Sequence record: OZ346182.1
Reading direction: 5' to 3' (one strand)
Source of the DNA: a phage
DNA length: 64,000 nt
The position numbers and the translations under genes were made by a program. Of the stretch, positions 1 to 58,715 are shown in pieces. Below the pieces are notes generated by a model that saw nothing but the letters and a program-made list of their open reading frames with translations, did no database searches and had not been told where the DNA came from. Every line of letters starts with the position of its first letter. Within the stretch, counting starts at the first letter, position 1.

Positions 1-629
1 AAGATTGCACAGGCAGTAAGTGACTCTACAGACCTTAACAAAATCTATCCAGTGGGTATTGTGACGTGGTTTAACAGTAATGTTAACCCTAATACAGCAC
101 TGCCTGGTCTAACTTGGACGTATCTGAACAATGGTGTTGGTAGAACTATCAGAATTGCAGCAGCAAACGGTTCAGATGTTGCTACAACTGGTGGTTCAGA
201 CTCTGTGACGTTAGCTGTTGGGAACTTGCCTTCACACACTCACAGTTTTTCTGCGACTACCTCATCGTTTGACTACGGAACAAAAAACACTAACACGACT
301 GGTGCTCACACACACACTCTGTAAGTGGCTCTACTTCATCTGCTGGTAACCACAACCATTCCATTTCGTGGATTGGTCAGAACTCTACACACTACTCTGG
401 TGGTGGTGGTGGTAAAATCGGTACAGGTCCGGGTTACACTGATGCTGCTGGTGCGCACACCCACTCTGTAAGTGGTACTGCTGGTTCTGCTGGTAACCAC
501 GCTCACAGTGTTGGTATTGGTGCTCACAGTCATACAGTTAGTGGTAACACTGGTGGTACAGGTTCTGGTTCCGCATTTAGTGTTACTAACCAGTTCTATA
601 AGTTAATGGCTTGGGTAAGAACTGCTTAA
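1..629 (+). CDS. tail fibre protein, C-terminal part (5' end outside window); reading frame changes at a (CA)5 tract near 307-317
   Basis: Frame 1 open from nt 1 to stop 322-324 with tail-collar-like motif GGSDSVTLAVGNLPSHTHSF; frame 3 continues to stop 627-629 with repeated H-x-H motifs (NHNHS, GAHTHSV, NHAHSV, AHSHTV). Confidence 0.6.
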
Positions 630-708
630 TCCCTTGTTGACTGATTGTTAAGATGGTGTTAATATTCTTTATGGGTATTCTCACCATCTTGGCTGATGAG
701 GTGATTAA

Positions 709-906
709 ATGCCTACAATCCTAGCAATTCTTCTAAAAAATCTAGGTAGCTTCTTCTGGAAACTCATTTTATCCCTTCTAAGTGAATACATGATTGAGAA
801 AGTGTTCTTTAAGCTTGCAAGATACCTTGCGAGTAAAACAGACACACCTATTGATGATGAGTTCGTAGATAACTTAGAAAAAGCTTTTAAGGGGGAGAAT
901 AAATGA
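709..906 (+). CDS. hypothetical small hydrophobic protein
   Basis: 65 aa ORF with hydrophobic N-terminus. Confidence 0.35.
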   Translation: MPTILAILLKNLGSFFWKLILSLLSEYMIEKVFFKLARYLASKTDTPIDDEFVDNLEKAFKGENK

Positions 907-1274
907 AGTGGCTAGAGGAAGCTTTTAAAAACAATATTGGTGCAATTGTTGTTGGTATTTTTAGTGTTATTGGGATGTATACCACTATGCAAGTTTCAAG
1001 TGGTAAGCAAGAAGTGTCTGTCACAACAAAGTTACAGCAGCTAGATAATTATTCCAAAAGTAACTATTCAGCTATTCGTGATTTACAGTCTGACATGAGA
1101 CTGATTCAGCTAGGGATGGAGAACCAGAAAGTTCAGTTAGAGAATGTTAAGGGTGAAAACGCAAAACTCACCAAAACTCTTGATAAATTCTCTGACAGTG
1201 TGAACAATCTGGCTCAATCAGTATCAGCCCTCCAAGCTATTACTGAAAAGAACACAAAGAATACTGAAAAATAA
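903..1274 (+). CDS. hypothetical protein, N-terminal TM segment plus coiled-coil
   Basis: 123 aa ORF; hydrophobic stretch IGAIVVGIFSVIGMY then heptad-rich region. Confidence 0.4.
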   Translation: MKWLEEAFKNNIGAIVVGIFSVIGMYTTMQVSSGKQEVSVTTKLQQLDNYSKSNYSAIRDLQSDMRLIQLGMENQKVQLENVKGENAKLTKTLDKFSDSVNNLAQSVSALQAITEKNTKNTEK

Positions 1275-1280
1275 AGTTTA

Positions 1281-1308
1281 AGGCTCCTTTTTACGGGAGC
1301 CTTTTTTG
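1281..1308. terminator. rho-independent terminator between convergent genes
   Basis: GGCTCC-TTTTTAC-GGGAGCC followed by TTTTTT. Confidence 0.6.
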
Positions 1309-1310
1309 TT

Positions 1311-2210
1311 TTACTTACCTACTGACAAAGGTGCTTCAATCTTTCCTGCATGTTGGTAGTTGCTAATACCACCAATAAAATCACTTGCGGTAAGGTGTTT
1401 TAGGTCACTTAGTGTGTTAAGCTGCACACCAATCTCAAAAGTAGGTGCATGGAACTCTTTATTGTTCATCAGTTCATAAACCTGCTTCATATGGTTCTGA
1501 TAAATCTGAGTATCTCCAAAGACACCTATCAAGTATCGTGGAGTATACCCAGTCATCTTGCAAAGAACTTCCAGAATAAAGCCATAGGATGCAATGTTAA
1601 ACGGAAGTCCTAAAAAGGTGTCTACAGAACGTTGATACCATTGTAAATCAACTTCACCCTCATTAGTAATGTAAATCTGAAACAGAACATGACAAGGTGC
1701 TAAAGCCATCGAGTTGGCTGCAATATCTGCTGCATTCCAAGCATTAACAAGCATGTAACGGTCTGTGATATCACCTTTCATCTTCGTTACTAAGGTCTCT
1801 AACTGGTCTACAACACAACCATTATGACCTTCAAAGTTTCTCCACTGAACCCCGTAGATTCTTCCACCTGCATCTTCTAACCAGTCTTGCTCAGAGGAAT
1901 AGCTAGAGCTTAACCAGCGTTTAAAATCATCTGACCAGATAGTCCAACGTTCCCCATCATTTTCACCCCAAGTACGGTAACGGAGTTCACCAAGTTTATT
2001 CTCACCGTTCAGGAACCATAAAGCTTCCCCAATAACTTGCCGTGTAAACACCTGTTTAGATGTTAAGAGTGGGAAACCAGTACGCATATCAAAACGAAAT
2101 TTTGGTGGAGCAAAAGCAGAGATAACATCTCCAGTTCGTGTAGTACGCAGTTCACCAACTGATAAAACATGGTTCAGGATATTTTTGTAGCTTGTATCTG
2201 CTTGTGACAT
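1311..2210 (-). CDS. thyA: thymidylate synthase
   Basis: 299 aa; motifs LAPCHVLFQIY and GLPFNIASYGFIL typical of ThyA. Confidence 0.95.
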   Translation of the reverse strand: MSQADTSYKNILNHVLSVGELRTTRTGDVISAFAPPKFRFDMRTGFPLLTSKQVFTRQVIGEALWFLNGENKLGELRYRTWGENDGERWTIWSDDFKRWLSSSYSSEQDWLEDAGGRIYGVQWRNFEGHNGCVVDQLETLVTKMKGDITDRYMLVNAWNAADIAANSMALAPCHVLFQIYITNEGEVDLQWYQRSVDTFLGLPFNIASYGFILEVLCKMTGYTPRYLIGVFGDTQIYQNHMKQVYELMNNKEFHAPTFEIGVQLNTLSDLKHLTASDFIGGISNYQHAGKIEAPLSVGK

Positions 2211-2211
2211 A

Positions 2212-2757
2212 TTAAAAGTGCCCTTTTACTTGTGGAACATAAATTTCAAAGGTTGCTTTACCATCCTCTGATGGTTTTGACTGTACCTTTGTAAATACAC
2301 GGTTATCATACAGCTTCTCAAAGAAGTTTTCAAAAGGTAAATGCACAGTGGCCTCTTCAGTAACTTTATGGAAAACAGTATGGAACACCACACTAGCATA
2401 TGGTAAAGCGTTGACAAGGATACCTGCACCACCAATTACAAAGATATCTTCATCAATAGAGCTATCAAGATACTTCAAAAATGCTCCAAATGACTCTTTA
2501 CTGGCTTTAGCATACATTACATCATCTTTGCCAAAGTCTATGCCTAAGTATGGTACAGAATTTGTTAAGATGAGGTTTGCACGTTCTGGTAAAGGTTTAC
2601 TACCCAGAGTCTTAAAAGTCTCATTACCCATGACTACTAAGTTATTTTTAGTGAGTCTCTTAAACTCTTGCATGTCCTGTTTATGTCGAGGCCACGGCAT
2701 ACCAGTCGGTGTACCAAATTCACCGTTTTCACCACTTGCAAATATTAGTTTAATCAT
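2212..2757 (-). CDS. folA: dihydrofolate reductase
   Basis: 181 aa; N-terminal MIKLIFA...GMPW and VMGNETFKTL typical of DHFR; adjacent to thyA. Confidence 0.9.
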   Translation of the reverse strand: MIKLIFASGENGEFGTPTGMPWPRHKQDMQEFKRLTKNNLVVMGNETFKTLGSKPLPERANLILTNSVPYLGIDFGKDDVMYAKASKESFGAFLKYLDSSIDEDIFVIGGAGILVNALPYASVVFHTVFHKVTEEATVHLPFENFFEKLYDNRVFTKVQSKPSEDGKATFEIYVPQVKGHF

Positions 2758-3014
2758 TTTGTAAACCCTTTCTTAATGAACCAGTTGATGACACTCTTCA
2801 CAAATTTACTACGATGGTAGATAAAATGTGGAGAGGGTTGGTATGAACCATAAGCCCAGAAAGCGATAATTTCATTACACCCTGTGCATCGGGTACTTTC
2901 TTCAGCAATATGACCGTTGACTATTTCATTTACCTCACCTTGTAAGTCTGTACACCCACAATGTGGACAACGGATAGGTGTTCCATCAGACTCATAGCAG
3001 TGTTCAATTTTCAT
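2754..3014 (-). CDS. hypothetical Cys-rich (zinc-ribbon-like) protein
   Basis: 86 aa; CPHCGC and CTGC pairs. Confidence 0.4.
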   Translation of the reverse strand: MKIEHCYESDGTPIRCPHCGCTDLQGEVNEIVNGHIAEESTRCTGCNEIIAFWAYGSYQPSPHFIYHRSKFVKSVINWFIKKGFTK

Positions 3015-3530
3015 CTATTTAACCTCAAAAACTGGCTCAAGAACCAATATAAAGTCTACACAGTCATCTTCTTCATCCAGAACACCATCAAAGTTCTTAG
3101 GAACGAAGTCGAAGAGGCTCATAACAAAACAGTCAGAAGTGACCCTGATAGTTCCTCCCATGTTCTCTACAGTTAACACTGTACGACTTTCTTTTACCTC
3201 CCTCAGAAGATTACCCACAAAGTCATCCAAGAAGTGCTTCATCAGTGACTTAAAACCTTTAGGGTAATCTGTACCAGAGTATGTTTCAATCTGGGGAACA
3301 AGCTTAACATTTATACTAGTCTTTGTTAAGAATGTATTAGAGAACATACTATCAGGTAACTTACAAACAGTCTTTCCAGTACCTTCATGTTCAATCTCAA
3401 CAAAACCAGCTTCATCGCCACATGTAACTATTTTAAAAGATGCTTCATTCTCATACTGTGAAGCCATAAACTTTTTAAGCATCACTTTAAGGAAGTCTGC
3501 ATGAGCATCTTGTAAGAAGATATCAATCAT
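3015..3530 (-). CDS. hypothetical protein
   Basis: 171 aa ORF, no recognised motif. Confidence 0.4.
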   Translation of the reverse strand: MIDIFLQDAHADFLKVMLKKFMASQYENEASFKIVTCGDEAGFVEIEHEGTGKTVCKLPDSMFSNTFLTKTSINVKLVPQIETYSGTDYPKGFKSLMKHFLDDFVGNLLREVKESRTVLTVENMGGTIRVTSDCFVMSLFDFVPKNFDGVLDEEDDCVDFILVLEPVFEVK

Positions 3531-3543
3531 AGTTAATCACCTA

Positions 3544-3903
3544 TTATGGGAACAAGCACTTAATGTCATCGTTTTTGAAAACAAAACTTGTGTAGTTATG
3601 ACCATCAACATCCAGCCAAACAGCCTGAACATCTACACCATCAAGATTCTGGTAAAGTTCTTTGATGAAGTGGTCTTTCACAATCTGACTGCTAGTTGTT
3701 TCCAGCTTAATGTTCGAGATTGCTGAACCTACAGCCATATAGCCCATGACACGTTTCTTCTCAGTATGCTTAATCTTACCATCTTTGTAAGCCATAATGA
3801 GATTGGAAAGAATCTTTACACCATAATACTTTTCAAGGTGAGTAGGTACACCATAAAAGCCTAATGCGAAGTTTTCAGAGTGGATAATGTTTTCACGTTT
3901 CAT
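3544..3903 (-). CDS. hypothetical protein
   Basis: 119 aa ORF. Confidence 0.4.
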   Translation of the reverse strand: MKRENIIHSENFALGFYGVPTHLEKYYGVKILSNLIMAYKDGKIKHTEKKRVMGYMAVGSAISNIKLETTSSQIVKDHFIKELYQNLDGVDVQAVWLDVDGHNYTSFVFKNDDIKCLFP

Positions 3904-7410: not shown

Positions 7411-7944
7411 TCAACTTAGTTTTGCAAACTCTCCGTGGAGTTTAATAGCAGCTTCACAGTAAGCTTTATGGGCTTCTTCAGGTGTGTCATGGTGACCTAA
7501 AAACATCTTCTTACCTTTATAACTTATCTGTGCGACCCACTTACCAGACTTCTTCTTAAGACTTACACCCTTGTACCCAGATTTATTGGTGACCGGTTTA
7601 CCTTTATTCCAAGCACTTTGAAAATCATCTGCTTCCCTTAAGTTTACAATCCTGTTGTCAAGTGAGTCTCCGTTGATATGGTCAATGATACCTTTTGGCA
7701 TCTTGCCATACACGTAAAGCCATGCGAGTCTGTGTGCTTTATGTGCTTTCTTGTCAAAATAGATACTAACCTGTTTATGACCACTTGAATCAGTCTGGAT
7801 ATTACCTGCCACCTTTCCTGCATAATTACTGTTAAAAACACTAACAGCTCTTGATTTACCTTCTCTACGAAGCCAAGTAAAGACCCCTGTTTCGGGGTCA
7901 TAGTGCAGCAGCTCCTTTAAACGTTTTTGTAAAATTAAATCCAT
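7411..7944 (-). mobile_element. HNH homing endonuclease with AP2-like DNA-binding domain
   Basis: 177 aa; HINGDSLDNRIVNL HNH-like core and C-terminal SGYKGVS...GKWVAQISY...HHDTPEEA AP2-like; shares a 30 nt identical 5' segment with the gene at 17783. Confidence 0.75.
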
Positions 7945-7947
7945 TAA

Positions 7948-8507
7948 TCAATGTACCTCATACCAGCTCTTACCAACCTTTGCTGTACCAGTTACAAGTG
8001 TTTCTTTCCTCAAACCTAAGTTTTTTGAAGCTTGTCCATACATCCAGTCAGCAATTGCTTTCATATCATGTGTCATACCCTCTGGACATTCCCAACTATT
8101 TTCATCGTGATATGCCAGAAGTAACCTTGCTCCGATAGCTGGTTTTCGAGCATTCAGTTTTGTCAGGCCATCTTCACAGGCTTTTCTTGCTGCTAGGTTG
8201 ATGGCCTCATTCTGAATCTGTGCTTCCGAACTCATCAGGAGGTAGTTCAGTAGTTTATGTGGAGATTTGCACCATATCCATGCTCCAGCGACCCTGATAT
8301 AACCACCTTTAGCAATTGAAGAATTCTTCCCAAAAACCTCTTCCAGAGCCTTTTTAGACGCCTTAAAATCGGCTTCTAAGCTATCAAGTAACTTCTTAAT
8401 CTTTGGCAGACGCATATAGTAAGTTTGTTTAGTCAATGCACCTTCTTCCGTAGATGATGCCTTGATAGTTTTTGCAAACTTCTCGTCTCCAGCCCCGAAC
8501 AATACAT
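7948..8507 (-). CDS. DNA polymerase (family A), exon 2 / C-terminal part
   Basis: Begins FGAGDEKFAKT (second half of Pol A motif B) and contains LLAYHDENSWE (motif C); upstream boundary approximate. Confidence 0.8.
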
Positions 8508-8777
8508 CTGGTCAATACACTCGCAAGGTGTACCAGTTCTCTTATGAACTTCTCCGCATTTCTACGGAGTGTCGGACTATATCACGTAGCAGTGGTGCTA
8601 CCGTTGCACTTGGGATGGTCATTAGCTTACCACCCTACTCTACTCAGTTCATACGTTAAGTATGCTTTTCGATAGTCTCTGAACGTTCCTCTTAAGAGGC
8701 TTCGCTGCTGATTACCATATCTTTACAGACTTAGGCTTCCAGCAATTCACAACGTTTTACATGCGCCACTGACGCAT
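8508..8777 (-). ncRNA. putative group I intron interrupting DNA polymerase motif B (boundaries +/-10 nt)
   Basis: In-frame stops between exons; minus-strand elements GUUCAGAGACUAUCG (R-like) and GUGAUAUAGUCCGACA (S-like) with GACUA/UAGUC P7 pairing. Confidence 0.65.
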
Positions 8778-10944
8778 AAATGCCATTTTTGGCTTTCTTA
8801 CGACCTTTTGTAATCTCGTGGAGAAGTTCCTCATCCTGTGTCTCCCTACAACGAACAATGTCTTCTTCCTTGTTCAGACCAAAGTAAATACTATTCAGTG
8901 TATGTGCATCAGTACCTGTGTAGACTTCATAGAGGTCATTCTCAGCATCATAACGCAGATACTTGTCAGTTTCTGGGTTAAGATACTTGTCAAGATGCTT
9001 GCAGTAGTATCTACCATCATCTTGCTTAGTGAACTCAACTGACTCTTTACCCTCAGTTACCGCTTTAGTGAAGTCTTCATCACCCATAAAGTTACAAAGA
9101 AGAACTAGCTGGGCTGAGTTTTGGTCTACAGAGACAACGTTAGTACCTTCTTCACAAATCCACACCTCCCTCATAGGTGCTCCATAGACAGCAGCACCAG
9201 ACGGTACGTTTACAATACCATATTGTGTCATACGTCCAGTTGAAGTACCAAACACCATTGCACCAGCACTAAGGCGACCATCAGGACGAATCTGGTTCAA
9301 CCAACCTTTTTCATCATCTTTTGAGTTCTCAATAGTTCTACGTCGGTGCATCAAAGTATAGTACTTAGCAATCTTCTGTCCAAGCTCACCTTCAATCGTA
9401 TCATAAGATGATTCAGTAAGTTTTGGTGAAGTACGGATTAAGCAAGGCTCAAGCAAATCTGTGTATTTCTTCACAGACCAGTTATGCTCAATGTACTGGA
9501 CACCTTCATGCTCAACATAGCTCAAACCACACCGCTCAACCATTTCCTGCCACTTAGGATGCTTTGTAATCATCTTTTTATTGTCTTTGAAACGACAAAC
9601 TTTGATAGGGCGACCATCTGAGTCTTTCTTGTAATTCCAGTCATCTGGAATCCAACCAACTGATTTCAAGTAGTCTTTAACAACTGCTACCTGAGTCATA
9701 CGAGAAACTTCAAACTCAATTGGTGTATATGGTGCATCAATCAAACCTGTGTAGCGACTTGACTCAAGTTCAAAGTGGTTAACAACGTGGCTGTTATAGT
9801 ACTTCACAGTTTTGACTGTTTTTACTGGCTTCCAGTCTTTGCATTTCTTACCAATCTTTGCGTTCAACTCATTGCAAATTGCACGAGCATCCTTCATTGC
9901 TACAAAACCTTCCTTGTACTCTTCACCAGTTACAGAGTTGGTTGGTGTATAGCAATTCCTTTTTTCAATGTTAAAAATCTTTGTAGTTGGCTTACCAAAT
10001 GGTTTGATTTCGTATGTCTGCATCTCACCATTACGTACCTGCTGACGATACTTTGTCTTAGGGTACTTGGTAATTCTTTTCAGTCCATCTGCATGACCAA
10101 ATGTTTCAACATACTCATTCCAAGCTTTTGCAAACTCTTCTCCAGTGACTTTACCTTTGGTCTTAATAGTTGGAGGAAGATGTGGTTCAACCTCTGAAGC
10201 AAGCTCATTAGTCAACTTGTCAAGTTCCTTTACATGGAACTCCATAAGCTCTTTATCAGCTTTCCAACCATTAATAGCTTGTTGACTCATCCAGAAAGAT
10301 GTTTCTTTAGCTCGCATGTAGGTTTCATAAGTGTCTATGCCACACTTCTTAAGCTTGAGATACTCATTATCAAGTGCCCGTTTAGTTTTGGCGTTAATAC
10401 GGATATCTTCTACAACACGAGTGAAGATTTCTGCATTCCACACACCCCAATGTTCAATCTCTGGTTTACGAACACCAACACGAGCACCCCATGCAGCCAA
10501 GCCATGAGCACCTTTATAACCCTTTGGAGTTGGTCTATCCATCCACTGAACACGAGACTGGATAAGAGAATCCTGAAAGAAATTACTCCACGGCTTACAC
10601 TTTGGATTATCAAAGTTCCATAAATCCGGTGCAATGTGATTGAAAACCCACCAGTCATAACCTAGACCATTATGAATGCAAAGACGTTTTGCCTTTAACG
10701 CAAACTCAACACCTTCACGTAAGCCACCCTTAATGTACTTGGTATACTTGTGACCGAGGATAGGCTCATCTGTAAAGACCCATACAGGCGGCTCTTTATC
10801 GTCAGATTTATAGTCTGCGAAAGCCATTACGTGCACTTTAGTGAACTCAAGGAGTAAACCATCAGTTTCTGTATCACCAACTAAATGTAAGTTTTTAAAA
10901 TCTACGTTTTCCATTTTTACTCCCTCTAAAATCATTAACCTCAT
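8778..10944 (-). CDS. DNA polymerase (family A), exon 1 with 3'-5' exonuclease domain
   Basis: N-terminal DTETDGL exo motif; VDQNSAQLVLL motif A-like; ends RKKAKNGIY (first half of motif B) before the intervening sequence. Confidence 0.85.
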
Positions 10945-10974
10945 ACATTACTGCAAAAAATTATAAAAAGCAAG

Positions 10975-11003
10975 TTGACAATGCACTTGACAAGGTGTTA
11001 ATC
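10975..11003 (+). promoter_or_regulatory. promoter-like element with tandem TTGACA (GTTGACAATGCACTTGACAAGGTG)
   Basis: In divergent intergenic region; near-identical element at 56448. Confidence 0.3.
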
Positions 11004-24580: not shown

Positions 24581-25777
24581 ATGAACAAAGTACAGATTAT
24601 TAAAAAGAATGGCTCACTTGAAGAACCTGATATCAAAAAAGTTTTAGCAGCAGTCACAAAGTCAGCTAACAGAGTTGGTTATAAAGAGCTTCCACCAGAT
24701 GTTACTCAAGCTCTTGAGTCAGCATTTATGAGGATTCTGGTAAAGTCCACTAAGCAGAATAATTTGCTAATTTCGGTAAATGATATTCACAGTATTGTTG
24801 AGGGTGCTTTGGCAGAAGTCAATCACGAGATTTATGAGTCTTACTCAACATATAGAAATTACCGTAAAGAGGTTGCTCAAAATTGGGATGAACTCTACCA
24901 GAAGACCAAAGATACACTCTTCTTAGGCGACCGAGAAAACGCTAATTTTGACAGCAGTTTAATTTCTACAAAAGGCTCAATTATTCGTGGTTACCTGACT
25001 AAAGAAATCTTTAAACAGTACCATTTAACACCAGAGGAACTTGAAGCCATTGAAAAAGGATTTATCTATATCCATGATTTAAGAGACCTAATTTTTGGTG
25101 GTATCAACTGTTGCCTGTTTGACATTGGTAAAGTCCTGAAAGGTGGCTTTGAAATGTCTGGCATTGAATATTGTGAACCGAAGTCTGTGCTGTCAGCCTT
25201 ACAGGTTATTGGTGATGTAGTTCTTTCAGCAACTGCACAGCAATTTGGTGGCTTTACTTTAGCAGAGATTGATAAGGTACTTGTACCGTATGCTAAGAAG
25301 TCTCTACGTTACCATGCTGAAAAAGCAACAGCTTATGGTATTCCTAAAGAACATTACCACAACTATGTCATGGAGCAGCTACAGATTGAATTAACTCAAG
25401 GTTTTCAGTCTCTTGAAATGAAGCTCAATACTGTGCCTTGTAGCCGTGGTGATTTTGCATTCACAACTTTGACATTCGGGTTACTTGACTCAGATATGTC
25501 TAATGAAGATAACCGACTGCAATACATGATTGCGAGCACTCTCCTAGATGTTCGTATGAATGGACAAGGTAAGAGCAAGAAACCTGTTGTATTCCCTAAA
25601 CTGGTTTATATTTATGACCAGAAGAGACACAATGAGAATATCTGTCAAGGCCACCTGTACAGTAAAGCTATTGAGTGTTGCTCTAAAGCTATGTATCCAG
25701 ATTTCTTAAGTGTATCTGGACATGGTGCTGTAGCAGAGGCTTTTGAGCGTTCTGGCAAGGTAATTTCCCCGATGGGT
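24581..25777 (+). CDS. nrdD: anaerobic ribonucleotide reductase NrdD, exon 1
   Basis: ATP-cone N-terminus; exon ends ...VISPMG (GGU) immediately before the intron. Confidence 0.9.
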
Positions 25778-26093
25778 TAACAAGCTCTATAGCTCATCTA
25801 AAACGTGCCTAAACAGGGAAACTCTACAGATGTAGACAATCCTGTGCTAAATGATGTACGATGTAAGAAACTATACAACATAGGAGTCTTACATGCCAAA
25901 TAACTTCGAATATGAGTTTGAATACATCTAAATGCCGAACGACTAACCGTGATGAATGTAGCGGTGTAGGGTCAAGCGACTCGAAATGGTACGCTACTTA
26001 GAAATAAGTAGAAGATATAGTCTGGACTTACTGGCGACAGTAAGCAGCTTGAATAAAGCGGGGTAAGCTTAGCGAACTTACTTGAACAACAAG
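25778..26093 (+). ncRNA. group I intron in nrdD (316 nt, no ORF)
   Basis: Exon 1 ends in U, intron ends in G; splicing restores conserved PMG-CRAFL; contains AAACAGGGAAACUCUACAGAUGUAGACAAUCCUGUGCUAAAUG (very like T4 td intron), R-like GAACGACUAA and S-like AAGAUAUAGUCU. Confidence 0.85.
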
Positions 26094-27041
26094 TGTAGAG
26101 CATTTTTATCACCATACCATAACGAACATGGTGAAGAGTTTTATGTAGGTCGTGCTAACATTGGTGCTGTATCTTTGAACTTACCAATGATTTATCAGTA
26201 CACCAAAGAGAATGGCTTAGATTTCTGGAAAGAGCTTGATAAGTACCTAGAAATGATTCGCAGCTTCCACAAGAAACGTTACGAAATGATTGCTAATATG
26301 CCAGCAAGTTCTAACCCTCTTGCATTCACACAGGGTGGTCTGTACAAAGGGAATAAGAAACCTACTGACAAGGTTGGCTGGGATATCGTGAAGTCCTTCA
26401 CAGCTTCTTTTGGGGTTACTGCGCTTGATGAGCTATCTGTTCTTGCTGAAGGTAAACGACTCCATGAAGTTGGAAGCTGTAGTTTTGCATATGATGTTCT
26501 GGCATACATTAACATGAAAACTGAAGAGTTTAAGAACGAAGATGGCTTCTTGTATGCGGTATATGGCACTCCAGCAGAATCACTTTGTGGAACTCAGTTA
26601 AAACAGTTCAGAGATATGTTTGGCGTTATTAAAGGTGTCTCTGACAAGGAATACTTTACAAACAGTTTCCATATGAATGTTGCAGCAGACATCTCACCAT
26701 TTGAGAAGCAGGACTTAGAAGAGCCATTCTTCCATATCTGTAGAGGTGGTAGAATCCAGTATGTAAGGGTAGCTAACCCAGAAAACTTAACAGCACTTAA
26801 AAGTTGTATTACAAGAGGGATGTTGAAAGGTTTCTATCAGGGGCTTAACTTTGACTTAGCAATCTGTGAACATTGTGGTAACAGACCAAAGGCTGATGTT
26901 GAAGAATGTGAGGTTTGCCATTCACATGATATCTCTGTGATTAACAGGGTGTGCGGGTACTTGTCATTCACAAAAATTAAAGGTCAGTCTCGAATGAATG
27001 ACGCTAAGATGGCAGAAATTAAGGATAGGGTTTCTATGTAA
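26094..27041 (+). CDS. nrdD: anaerobic ribonucleotide reductase NrdD, exon 2
   Basis: Begins CRAFLSPY; glycyl-radical motif RVCGYL; zinc ribbon CEHCG...CEVC. Confidence 0.9.
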   Translation, partial: CRAFLSPYHNEHGEEFYVGRANIGAVSLNLPMIYQYTKENGLDFWKELDKYLEMIRSFHKKRYEMIANMPASSNPLAFTQGGLYKGNKKPTDKVGWDIVKSFTASFGVTALDELSVLAEGKRLHEVGSCSFAYDVLAYINMKTEEFKNEDGFLYAVYGTPAESLCGTQLKQFRDMFGVIKGVSDKEYFTNSFHMNVAADISPFEKQDLEEPFFHICRGGRIQYVRVANPENLTALKSCITRGMLKGFYQGLNFDLAICEHCGNRPKADVEECEVCHSHDISVINRVCGYLSFTKIKGQSRMNDAKMAEIKDRVSM

Positions 27042-58631: not shown

Positions 58632-58708
58632 CTCTGTTTAGCTCAGCTTGGTAGAGCGTTCCGTTTGGGGCGGTAAGGCCGGAGGTTCAAGTCCTCCAAC
58701 AGAGACCA
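58632..58708 (+). tRNA. tRNA-Pro (anticodon UGG)
   Basis: Cloverleaf with GGTTCAAGTCC T-arm, anticodon loop TTTGGGG, CCA encoded. Confidence 0.7.
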
Positions 58709-58715
58709 AATTAAT

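Follow-up and report, generated by a model that had tools for sequence, protein, structure and literature searches.

The locus described here raises the question of whether a phage family A DNA polymerase that is encoded in two pieces represents two genes or one gene interrupted by an intron. It lies in a 64,000-nucleotide stretch of phage DNA (sequence record OZ346182.1), called the window below, and all coordinates are those of the window unless another locus is named. The source is a Felixounavirus, one of the Felix O1-like myoviruses that infect Escherichia coli and Salmonella. Its polymerase region, 7900..11000, is 96 to 97% identical to that of many Felixounavirus genomes, with phage REP5 as the closest match (97.2% identity).

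The polymerase is spread over two minus-strand ORFs, 8731..10944 and 7948..8502. The upstream ORF reads to ...GRKKAKNGIY, continues for 14 more codons (ASVAHVKRCELLEA) and ends at a stop at 8731-8733, and the downstream ORF begins at a purely mechanical TTG start (MFGAGDEK). Several stops are found in the exon-1 frame within the stretch between them. An initial annotation, made by eye from the letters and the ORF list, had noted the two ORFs with their RKKAKNGIY and FGAGDEK ends and the in-frame stops, all of which are present in the sequence, and had proposed a group I intron inside polymerase motif B. We conclude, with high confidence and on the basis of modeling and sequence comparison, that the segment 8505..8771 is very probably a group I intron, ORF-less, IA2-like and self-splicing, within the family A DNA polymerase gene.

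Intron detection and boundaries

A scan of the whole 64-kb window with the Rfam group I intron model (RF00028) gave a match at 8552..8834 on the minus strand with 61.7 bits, where the gathering score is 50 (E = 3e-13), so that the match is real and not due to chance. Its 5' limit at 8834 is not the intron boundary, since the alignment forces P1 and P2 into the exon. We rejected that placement, 8834..8790, as a misalignment; the true P1 falls in a stretch that the Rfam alignment treats as a 27-nt insertion. P1 and P10 were consequently located by manual folding and comparison with homologues.

The intron so delimited is 267 nt long on the minus strand, running from C8771 (CAGUGG...) to a terminal G at 8505 (...CCAGAUG). 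Exon 1, 8772..10944 (minus strand), is supported by the ORF list, the annotation of relatives and a Pfam DNA_pol_A match on the spliced protein, and it ends ...AAA AAU GGC AUU UAU GCG U. Exon 2, 7948..8504 (minus strand), is supported by the ORF list and by comparison with intron-less relatives and homologues; it begins UA UUG UUC GGG GCU GGA..., which completes Leu-Leu-Phe-Gly-Ala-Gly. Excision of 8505..8771 leaves a single ORF with the junction GCG U/UA UUG UUC (A-L-L-F), in which the polymerase reads KNGIYALLFGAGDEK across the join KNGIY-ALL-FGAGDEK. In both length and residues, this product matches the intron-less genes of ULIM9, HY02 and bumzen. More distantly, three residues separate the Y from F/Y-G in all 12 of 12 uninterrupted database homologues, down to approximately 30% identity, and those above approximately 60% identity mostly have exactly KNGIYALLFGAGDE.

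The longest ORF starts at 10944 (MRLMILEGVK), 10 codons upstream of the Met annotated in relatives. That Met, at 10914 (MENVDFK), is the start in relatives and agrees with the N termini of homologues, and within the window interval 10914..10944 (minus strand) it is probably the true start. The spliced polymerase is 899 residues long from the start annotated in relatives and 909 residues from the longest ORF, with a predicted mass of approximately 103 kDa (the two ORFs by themselves would give polypeptides of approximately 81 and 21 kDa). The Pfam DNA_pol_A domain spans residues 713 to 907 of the spliced protein, a region that can be aligned to T7 gene 5 with 33% identity.

Secondary structure and covariation

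The fold has 15 helices, and in a helix-by-helix script all of them, including the P7 pseudoknot, P1 and P10, consist of 100% standard pairs; coordinates below are on the minus strand. The P1 hairpin (8760..8778) pairs the exon sequence UAUGCGU (8778-8772) with the guide sequence GCGCAUG (8766-8760) in 7 of 7 standard pairs, and U8772, with which exon 1 ends at the 5' splice site, stands opposite G8766 as the U·G wobble of this 7-bp helix. P10 is formed by CAGUG in the P1 loop (8771-8767) and the first bases of the 3' exon, UAUUG (8504-8500), again with all five pairs standard. The two helices are contiguous on the guide sequence, the P10 strand lying immediately 5' of the P1 strand.

The P3 domain extends over 8602..8754 and is closed by a 7-bp P3 (8754-8748/8608-8602). 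P4 has 6 bp (8744-39/8711-06), P5 has 3 bp (8736-34/8716-14), P5a has 4 bp and a GUAA loop (8730-27/8722-19), P6 has 3 bp (8705-03/8685-83), the third of which was added after comparison with the intron of phage ZQ2, and P6a has 4 bp (8699-96/8691-88). The initial annotation had pointed to R-like and S-like elements, and these are found as GUUCAGAGACUAUCG at 8684..8670 and GUGAUAUAGUCCGACA at 8585..8570. Their cores pair as the 5-bp P7 pseudoknot, in which GACUA of the R element (8677-8673) is the 5' strand and UAGUC of the S element (8579-8575) is the 3' strand. Between P7 and P3 lie P7.1, with 5 bp (8664-60/8654-50), and P7.2, with 7 bp (8635-29/8619-13). The P8-P9.2 region, 8515..8601, contains P8 with 6 bp (8601-8596/8591-86), P9 with 7 bp and a GAAA loop (8569-63/8558-52), P9.1 with 5 bp (8550-46/8539-35) and P9.2 with 6 bp (8533-28/8520-15). 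P2 is absent from the fold.

P7.1 and P7.2 together are the mark of subgroup IA, and with both present and no P2 the modeled fold is IA2-like. A G-U-A linker between P7.1 and P7.2 has been quoted as a criterion for IA2 (PMC3428280); in the linker here, AACUGAGUAGAGUA, GUA appears two times, but the stretch exceeds a simple GUA junction in length.

Covariation supports this fold, as judged from the sequences of two variants. The intron of phage EC106, 83% identical, has the same P1 and P10 pairs as the window and changes one P8 pair from C-G to U-A. The intron of ZQ2, 73% identical and scoring 91.8 bits with Rfam, is altered on both sides at three pairs of P3 and changes a U-A of P5a to C-G, the third P6 pair from G-C to C-G and a U·G of P9 to G-C; its P8 is wholly different yet perfectly paired. 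Most of the covariation support comes from ZQ2, the one more distant intron, because the copies in Felixounavirus genomes vary little. A MAFFT alignment of eight related introns misaligned P7.1-P8 in the distant ones, so the helix script was applied to each sequence separately, and the ZQ2 comparison covers the helices other than P7.1 and P7.2, for which the string matches were wrong.

Proposed splicing pathway

The fold, the boundaries and the colinearity with intron-less genes are shown here, and we infer from the sequence that the RNA is catalytic. Both polymerase ORFs would be transcribed as one pre-mRNA, and the intron RNA would fold into P1-P10. An external guanosine would attack after U8772, the U of the P1 U·G pair, and the freed 5' exon would then attack after the terminal G8505 while P10 holds the 3' exon. 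The ligated mRNA would encode a single polymerase with motif B intact (RKKAKNGIY-ALL-FGAGDEK). The predicted ligated junction is ...GGCAUUUAUGCGU/UAUUGUUCGGG..., the predicted spliced RNA across it is GGCATTTATGCGT/TATTGTTCGGGGCT, and the predicted junction-spanning peptide is NGIYALLFGAGDEK. With the intron at 8505..8771, a cDNA would be expected to read GCAUUUAUGCGUUAUUGUUC, contrary to what a splice at 8508..8777 would give.

Alternative explanations

The latter boundaries are those of the initial annotation, which had placed the intron at 8508..8777 (270 nt) and, with the exact splice point flagged as unfixed, offered GIY/VLFGAG as a candidate join. Such an excision is also in frame, its last exon base, U8778, lies opposite G8760, and its last intron base is a G (G8508). 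Its product, however, lacks one residue in comparison with every uninterrupted homologue; when aligned to it, ULIM9, HY02 and bumzen show 3 extra nt, an extra codon at the junction. Moreover, the exon upstream of U8778 faces the guide sequence with a U-U, one pair and three mismatches, so that no P1 forms, and there is no adjoining P10. We rejected this junction, being one codon short of all homologues and lacking P1, and consider it highly improbable. Relative to the supported 8505..8771 and GIY-ALL-FGAG, the proposed ends were off by 6 nt (5') and 3 nt (3') and the join was one codon short. The proposal of a group I intron inside motif B itself held up, given the RF00028 match, the P1-P10 fold, the U·G at the 5' splice site, the terminal G and the colinear product. 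Of the checks that the initial annotation had suggested, the scan with group I models returned a match above the curated threshold, and the alignment with intron-less polymerases showed a colinear spliced product and fixed the boundary at one codon more.

It might also be supposed that the intervening RNA no longer splices and that each ORF yields a subunit of its own, the two then assembling. Most GenBank records do carry two separate "DNA polymerase" CDSs, and no splicing experiment (RT-PCR or in vitro self-splicing) for any Felixounavirus intron was found in the searchable literature. The break, though, separates the two aromatic residues of motif B within the O-helix; exon 2 lacks an ATG and has just a mechanical TTG, which no Shine-Dalgarno sequence precedes; and no promoter-like or terminator-like site occurs between the exons. 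Every ribozyme helix is intact and maintained by compensatory change, and the intron is 97 to 99% conserved across many genomes whose exons are more diverged. A genuinely split polymerase is thus unlikely, and we give it only a very small probability. A sequencing or assembly artefact, or an intein, is more remote still, to the point of being negligible, and nothing was found in favor of either: the same insertion, in three length forms, is present in about 100 independently sequenced genomes, and in the exon frame the insertion runs into a stop 14 codons in and into others beyond it, so that it cannot be an intein.

Insertion site in motif B

The residues of motif B are R754, K758, F762 and Y766 in E. 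coli Pol I and R518, K522, Y526 and Y530 in T7. We numbered the insertion site by our own alignment of RKKAKNGIYALLFG to motif B of these two enzymes. On that basis the intron would interrupt a Leu codon of the O-helix after its first base, the equivalent residues being approximately Leu764 in E. coli Pol I and Phe528 in T7 gp5; the uninterrupted site in intron-less genomes reads AAGAGCAAAAATGGCATCTACGCCCTGTTATTTGGAGCC. The published intron sites in phage Pol A genes are 674 (SPO1, SP82, Bastille and Pf-WMP3), 676 (phiL7) and 881 (PhiI and W31) (PMC3428280), and by our numbering the site at approximately 764 is different from all of these. Among 60 tblastn matches sampled across a total of 1,242, with the multi-intron polymerases of Bastillevirinae and Twortvirinae set aside, a split at codon ~764 was seen only in Felixounavirus genomes and in no other genus.

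Distribution and forms of the intron

The polymerase region is matched by 263 phage records, and at least 80% of the intron is present in 97 records. Felix O1 and many others are precisely without it, and the intron-less state of Felix O1 agrees with the 2010 genome paper for that phage, which reported introns to be absent (PMC3185647).

Three length forms are found. In the longest, approximately 800 nt, an ORF occupies the loop of a 12-bp P6a stem, and the C-terminal part of its product matches Pfam Endonuclease_7 (E = 1e-19); carriers include VpaE1, JH2, EC6, FSL SP-012 and others. The 311-nt form, in EC106 and garuso, keeps the long 12-bp P6a stem and has lost the ORF by a deletion whose endpoints lie at a short CCTAA repeat. 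The minimal form, 267 to 268 nt with a 4-bp P6a, is that of the window, REP5, Meda and many others. In sequence, this looks like a stepwise series from a full ORF-bearing intron to a minimal one by way of a decaying endonuclease gene. The endonuclease gene of the VpaE1 intron is frameshifted into two overlapping frames (2638..3098 of the extracted locus), and the corresponding stretch in EC106, where the gene is deleted, is 3054..3188 of its own locus. An intact version is found in JH2 and BPS15Q2.

The exons next to the intron carry a signature of their own. Compared over 240 nt on each side, the intron-less ULIM9 and the window are almost identical except for approximately 12 differences, all within -23 to +14 of the insertion site, most of them silent and one changing Ala to Ser. 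Conversely, the intron-containing VpaE1 and EC106 have exons heavily diverged from the window further out, and near the intron VpaE1 shows no differences within 30 nt upstream and 15 nt downstream, and EC106 only 2 within 15 nt on each side. Because the exon differences are confined to the vicinity of the site and the flanks of intron-containing genes are alike, the intron appears to move between polymerase backgrounds together with approximately 37 nt of exon, 23 nt upstream and 14 nt downstream, so that the travelling unit in the window would be 8491..8794 (minus strand). Such a pattern, judged from sequence, is the homing signature that short co-conversion tracts would be expected to give; the co-travelling exon bases are also those required for P1 and P10.

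With presence/absence polymorphism among close relatives and travelling flanking tracts both observed, we infer a history of homing. The intron is an optional mobile element in Felixounavirus, and the window holds a minimal derivative without a homing endonuclease gene, there being no ORF in this copy. Further spread of the copy would therefore depend on ordinary recombination or on an endonuclease provided in trans.

The records of Campylobacter phages A132 and A126 and Staphylococcus phage SA1 contain Felixounavirus polymerase sequence at 89 to 97% identity, which points to mislabelled, contaminated or chimeric entries.

Relation to known introns

An intron nearly identical to this one has already been reported for the sister phage Meda, and introns of its kind are very well known. 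The 2019 announcement of Meda mentions a polymerase intron in one sentence (PMC6486253). That intron is 99.6% identical to ours over the full 267 nt, lies in the same gene and genus, and is likewise without an endonuclease ORF. The announcement does not go into its class, fold or boundaries, analyse the insertion site or test splicing. The Meda GenBank record likewise calls the element an intron and joins the two polymerase pieces as one CDS, whereas two polymerase genes are the annotation in most other Felixounavirus records. For SPJ41, "two introns" are listed among the noncoding RNAs (PMC9951933). A comparative analysis of the genus from 2021 makes no mention of the intron and attributes a role in repair to the endonuclease VII encoded within it (PMC8300805). 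The 2010 statement of absence, the "two introns" of SPJ41 and the Meda sentence were all that we found in the literature on introns in Felix O1, Felixounavirus, Ounavirinae or VpaE1.

The T7-like coliphages PhiI and W31 have IA2 introns in their gene 5 polymerase (Bonocora and Shub 2004, as summarised in PMC3428280). They resemble the present case in the enterobacterial host, the family A polymerase and the IA2-type fold, and their homing endonuclease ORF occupies P6a, as it does in the Felixounavirus form that bears an ORF. In that summary their site is 881, numbered as in E. coli Pol I, and their product is an HNH enzyme (I-TslI for W31); the window intron is at approximately 764, and the ORF-bearing Felixounavirus introns encode an Endonuclease_7-type protein instead. 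IA2 introns in conserved finger-domain codons of Pol A are also present in SPO1, SP82 and Bastille (I-HmuI, I-HmuII and I-BasI), in cyanophage Pf-WMP3 (I-PfoP3I) and in Xanthomonas phage phiL7. That of Pf-WMP3, like ours, has no P2, has P7.1/P7.2 and has a short P10 (PMC3428280). These five lie at sites 674 and 676 rather than 764, all with HNH nicking endonucleases, and their splicing and cleavage have been demonstrated by experiment. A series comprising a full ORF form and shorter deletion derivatives, as in our forms of approximately 800, 311 and 267 to 268 nt, was described for the intron of another phage group in a 2000 study, which, as cited in PMC11878797, concerns another host gene, other phages and another endonuclease.

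Outside these polymerases, a ribozyme relative is found in an RNA polymerase gene of the Gamaleyavirus ZQ2 (NC_070874), with 73% identity over 78% of the intron and the same core. It differs in gene, in phage family, in having a P2 and in carrying an HNH-AP2 ORF in its 3' part, not in P6a. In vB_EcoP-ZQ2, an N4-like podovirus, the intron lies at approximately 470..1420 of the extracted locus and contains the HNH_3 and AP2 ORF; in the record, which annotates no intron, two CDSs are labelled "RNA polymerase" and the HNH gene stands apart. Further relatives occur in endolysin genes (Staphylococcus Sextaecvirus), a terminase gene (a Vibrio phage) and polymerase genes (Flavobacterium phages). None of these proved to be at the same Pol A site: the Staphylococcus phage matches that cover the guide-sequence region lie in endolysin genes, the Vibrio and ZQ2 relatives are in terminase and RNA polymerase, and the polymerase of Flavobacterium FpV21 is split elsewhere, with no motif-B sequence at the break. 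Vibrio phage 1.193.O has three group I introns (75 to 84 bits) within approximately 1.4 kb (2282..3650 of the extracted locus), and the terminase-like gene that contains them is annotated as three CDSs.

The neighboring HNH-AP2 gene and homing

As the initial annotation had recognized, an HNH-AP2 homing endonuclease gene lies outside the intron, just downstream of the polymerase. This free-standing gene, 7411..7944 (minus strand), has HNH_3 (E = 9e-15) and AP2 (E = 1e-12) domains by Pfam; it starts 3 nt past the polymerase stop and is approximately 560 nt downstream of the insertion site. Collaborative homing would have the HNH-AP2 enzyme cut the intron-less site and so mobilise an ORF-less intron, as F-CphI does for the cyanophage psbA intron. 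The position of the gene invites this reading, as does the homologous HNH-AP2 ORF inside the ZQ2 intron (33% identity, E = 3e-19), although by sequence that homology would indicate no more than that endonucleases of this family are found in either setting. In a spread sample of relatives, we found no association of the intron with the downstream gene. Intron and HNH gene occur together in the window, REP7, SPJ41 and others, and the HNH gene without the intron in Felix O1, bumzen, HY02, ULIM9, SP116 and others; an ORF-bearing intron is found without the HNH gene in VpaE1, EC6, Tribble and others, and with it in VSe11 and FG1m. Felix O1, ULIM9, HY02 and bumzen, with an HNH gene beside an intron-less polymerase, would cut themselves, and the many genomes with this pairing argue against the insertion site as the target of the HNH-AP2 enzyme. 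In the F-CphI type the endonuclease goes with the intron-containing allele, in which the intron shields the genome against the enzyme that it encodes, whereas here HNH-AP2 is common beside intron-less polymerase genes; the intron family, besides, has its own Endonuclease_7-type ORF. We therefore consider collaborative homing by the HNH-AP2 enzyme improbable.

Another suggestion, tentative and on balance still doubtful, is that codon 764 of motif B is a separate and hitherto uncharacterised homing site of family A polymerases, served by the Endonuclease_7-type enzyme. In mixed infections that enzyme, provided in trans by ORF-bearing sister phages (or, less probably, the HNH-AP2 enzyme), would go on spreading the ORF-less copy of the window, and the silent tract of approximately 37 nt would decide whether a site can be cleaved. 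If this were true, homing at codon 764 would use an Endonuclease_7-type enzyme and not the HNH enzymes known at 674, 676 and 881.

Other features of the window

A second group I intron, with its Rfam match at 25663..26044 on the plus strand (54.6 bits, E = 4e-11), splits the gene for the large subunit of anaerobic ribonucleotide reductase (nrdD). It is flanked by the ORFs 24581..25780 and 26082..27041 and has no inner ORF of at least 60 residues. In Meda, an HNH endonuclease is reported to interrupt nrdD (PMC6486253). The window also contains 24 Rfam tRNA matches at 58632..63553 on the plus strand, two of which, at 60215 and 60536, are barely above threshold (31 to 32 bits). A tRNA cluster is typical of Felix O1-like genomes.

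Significance

The value of these results is mostly practical, and none of them will surprise a specialist. The locus is correctly modeled as a single polymerase gene interrupted by a 267-nt intron, as opposed to the two genes usually annotated, and the exact junction, ...GCG U/UA UUG..., allows annotators to write the joined CDS in phages that are popular for biocontrol and therapy. By our numbering, the position inside the O-helix would be the fourth intron site documented for phage Pol A genes, and it agrees with the rule, already known, that mobile introns occupy the codons that are most conserved. The ORF-containing, ORF-deleted and minimal forms, together with intron-less relatives, occur in easily crossed phages of E. 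coli and Salmonella and would offer a natural series for the life cycle of the intron and its endonuclease.
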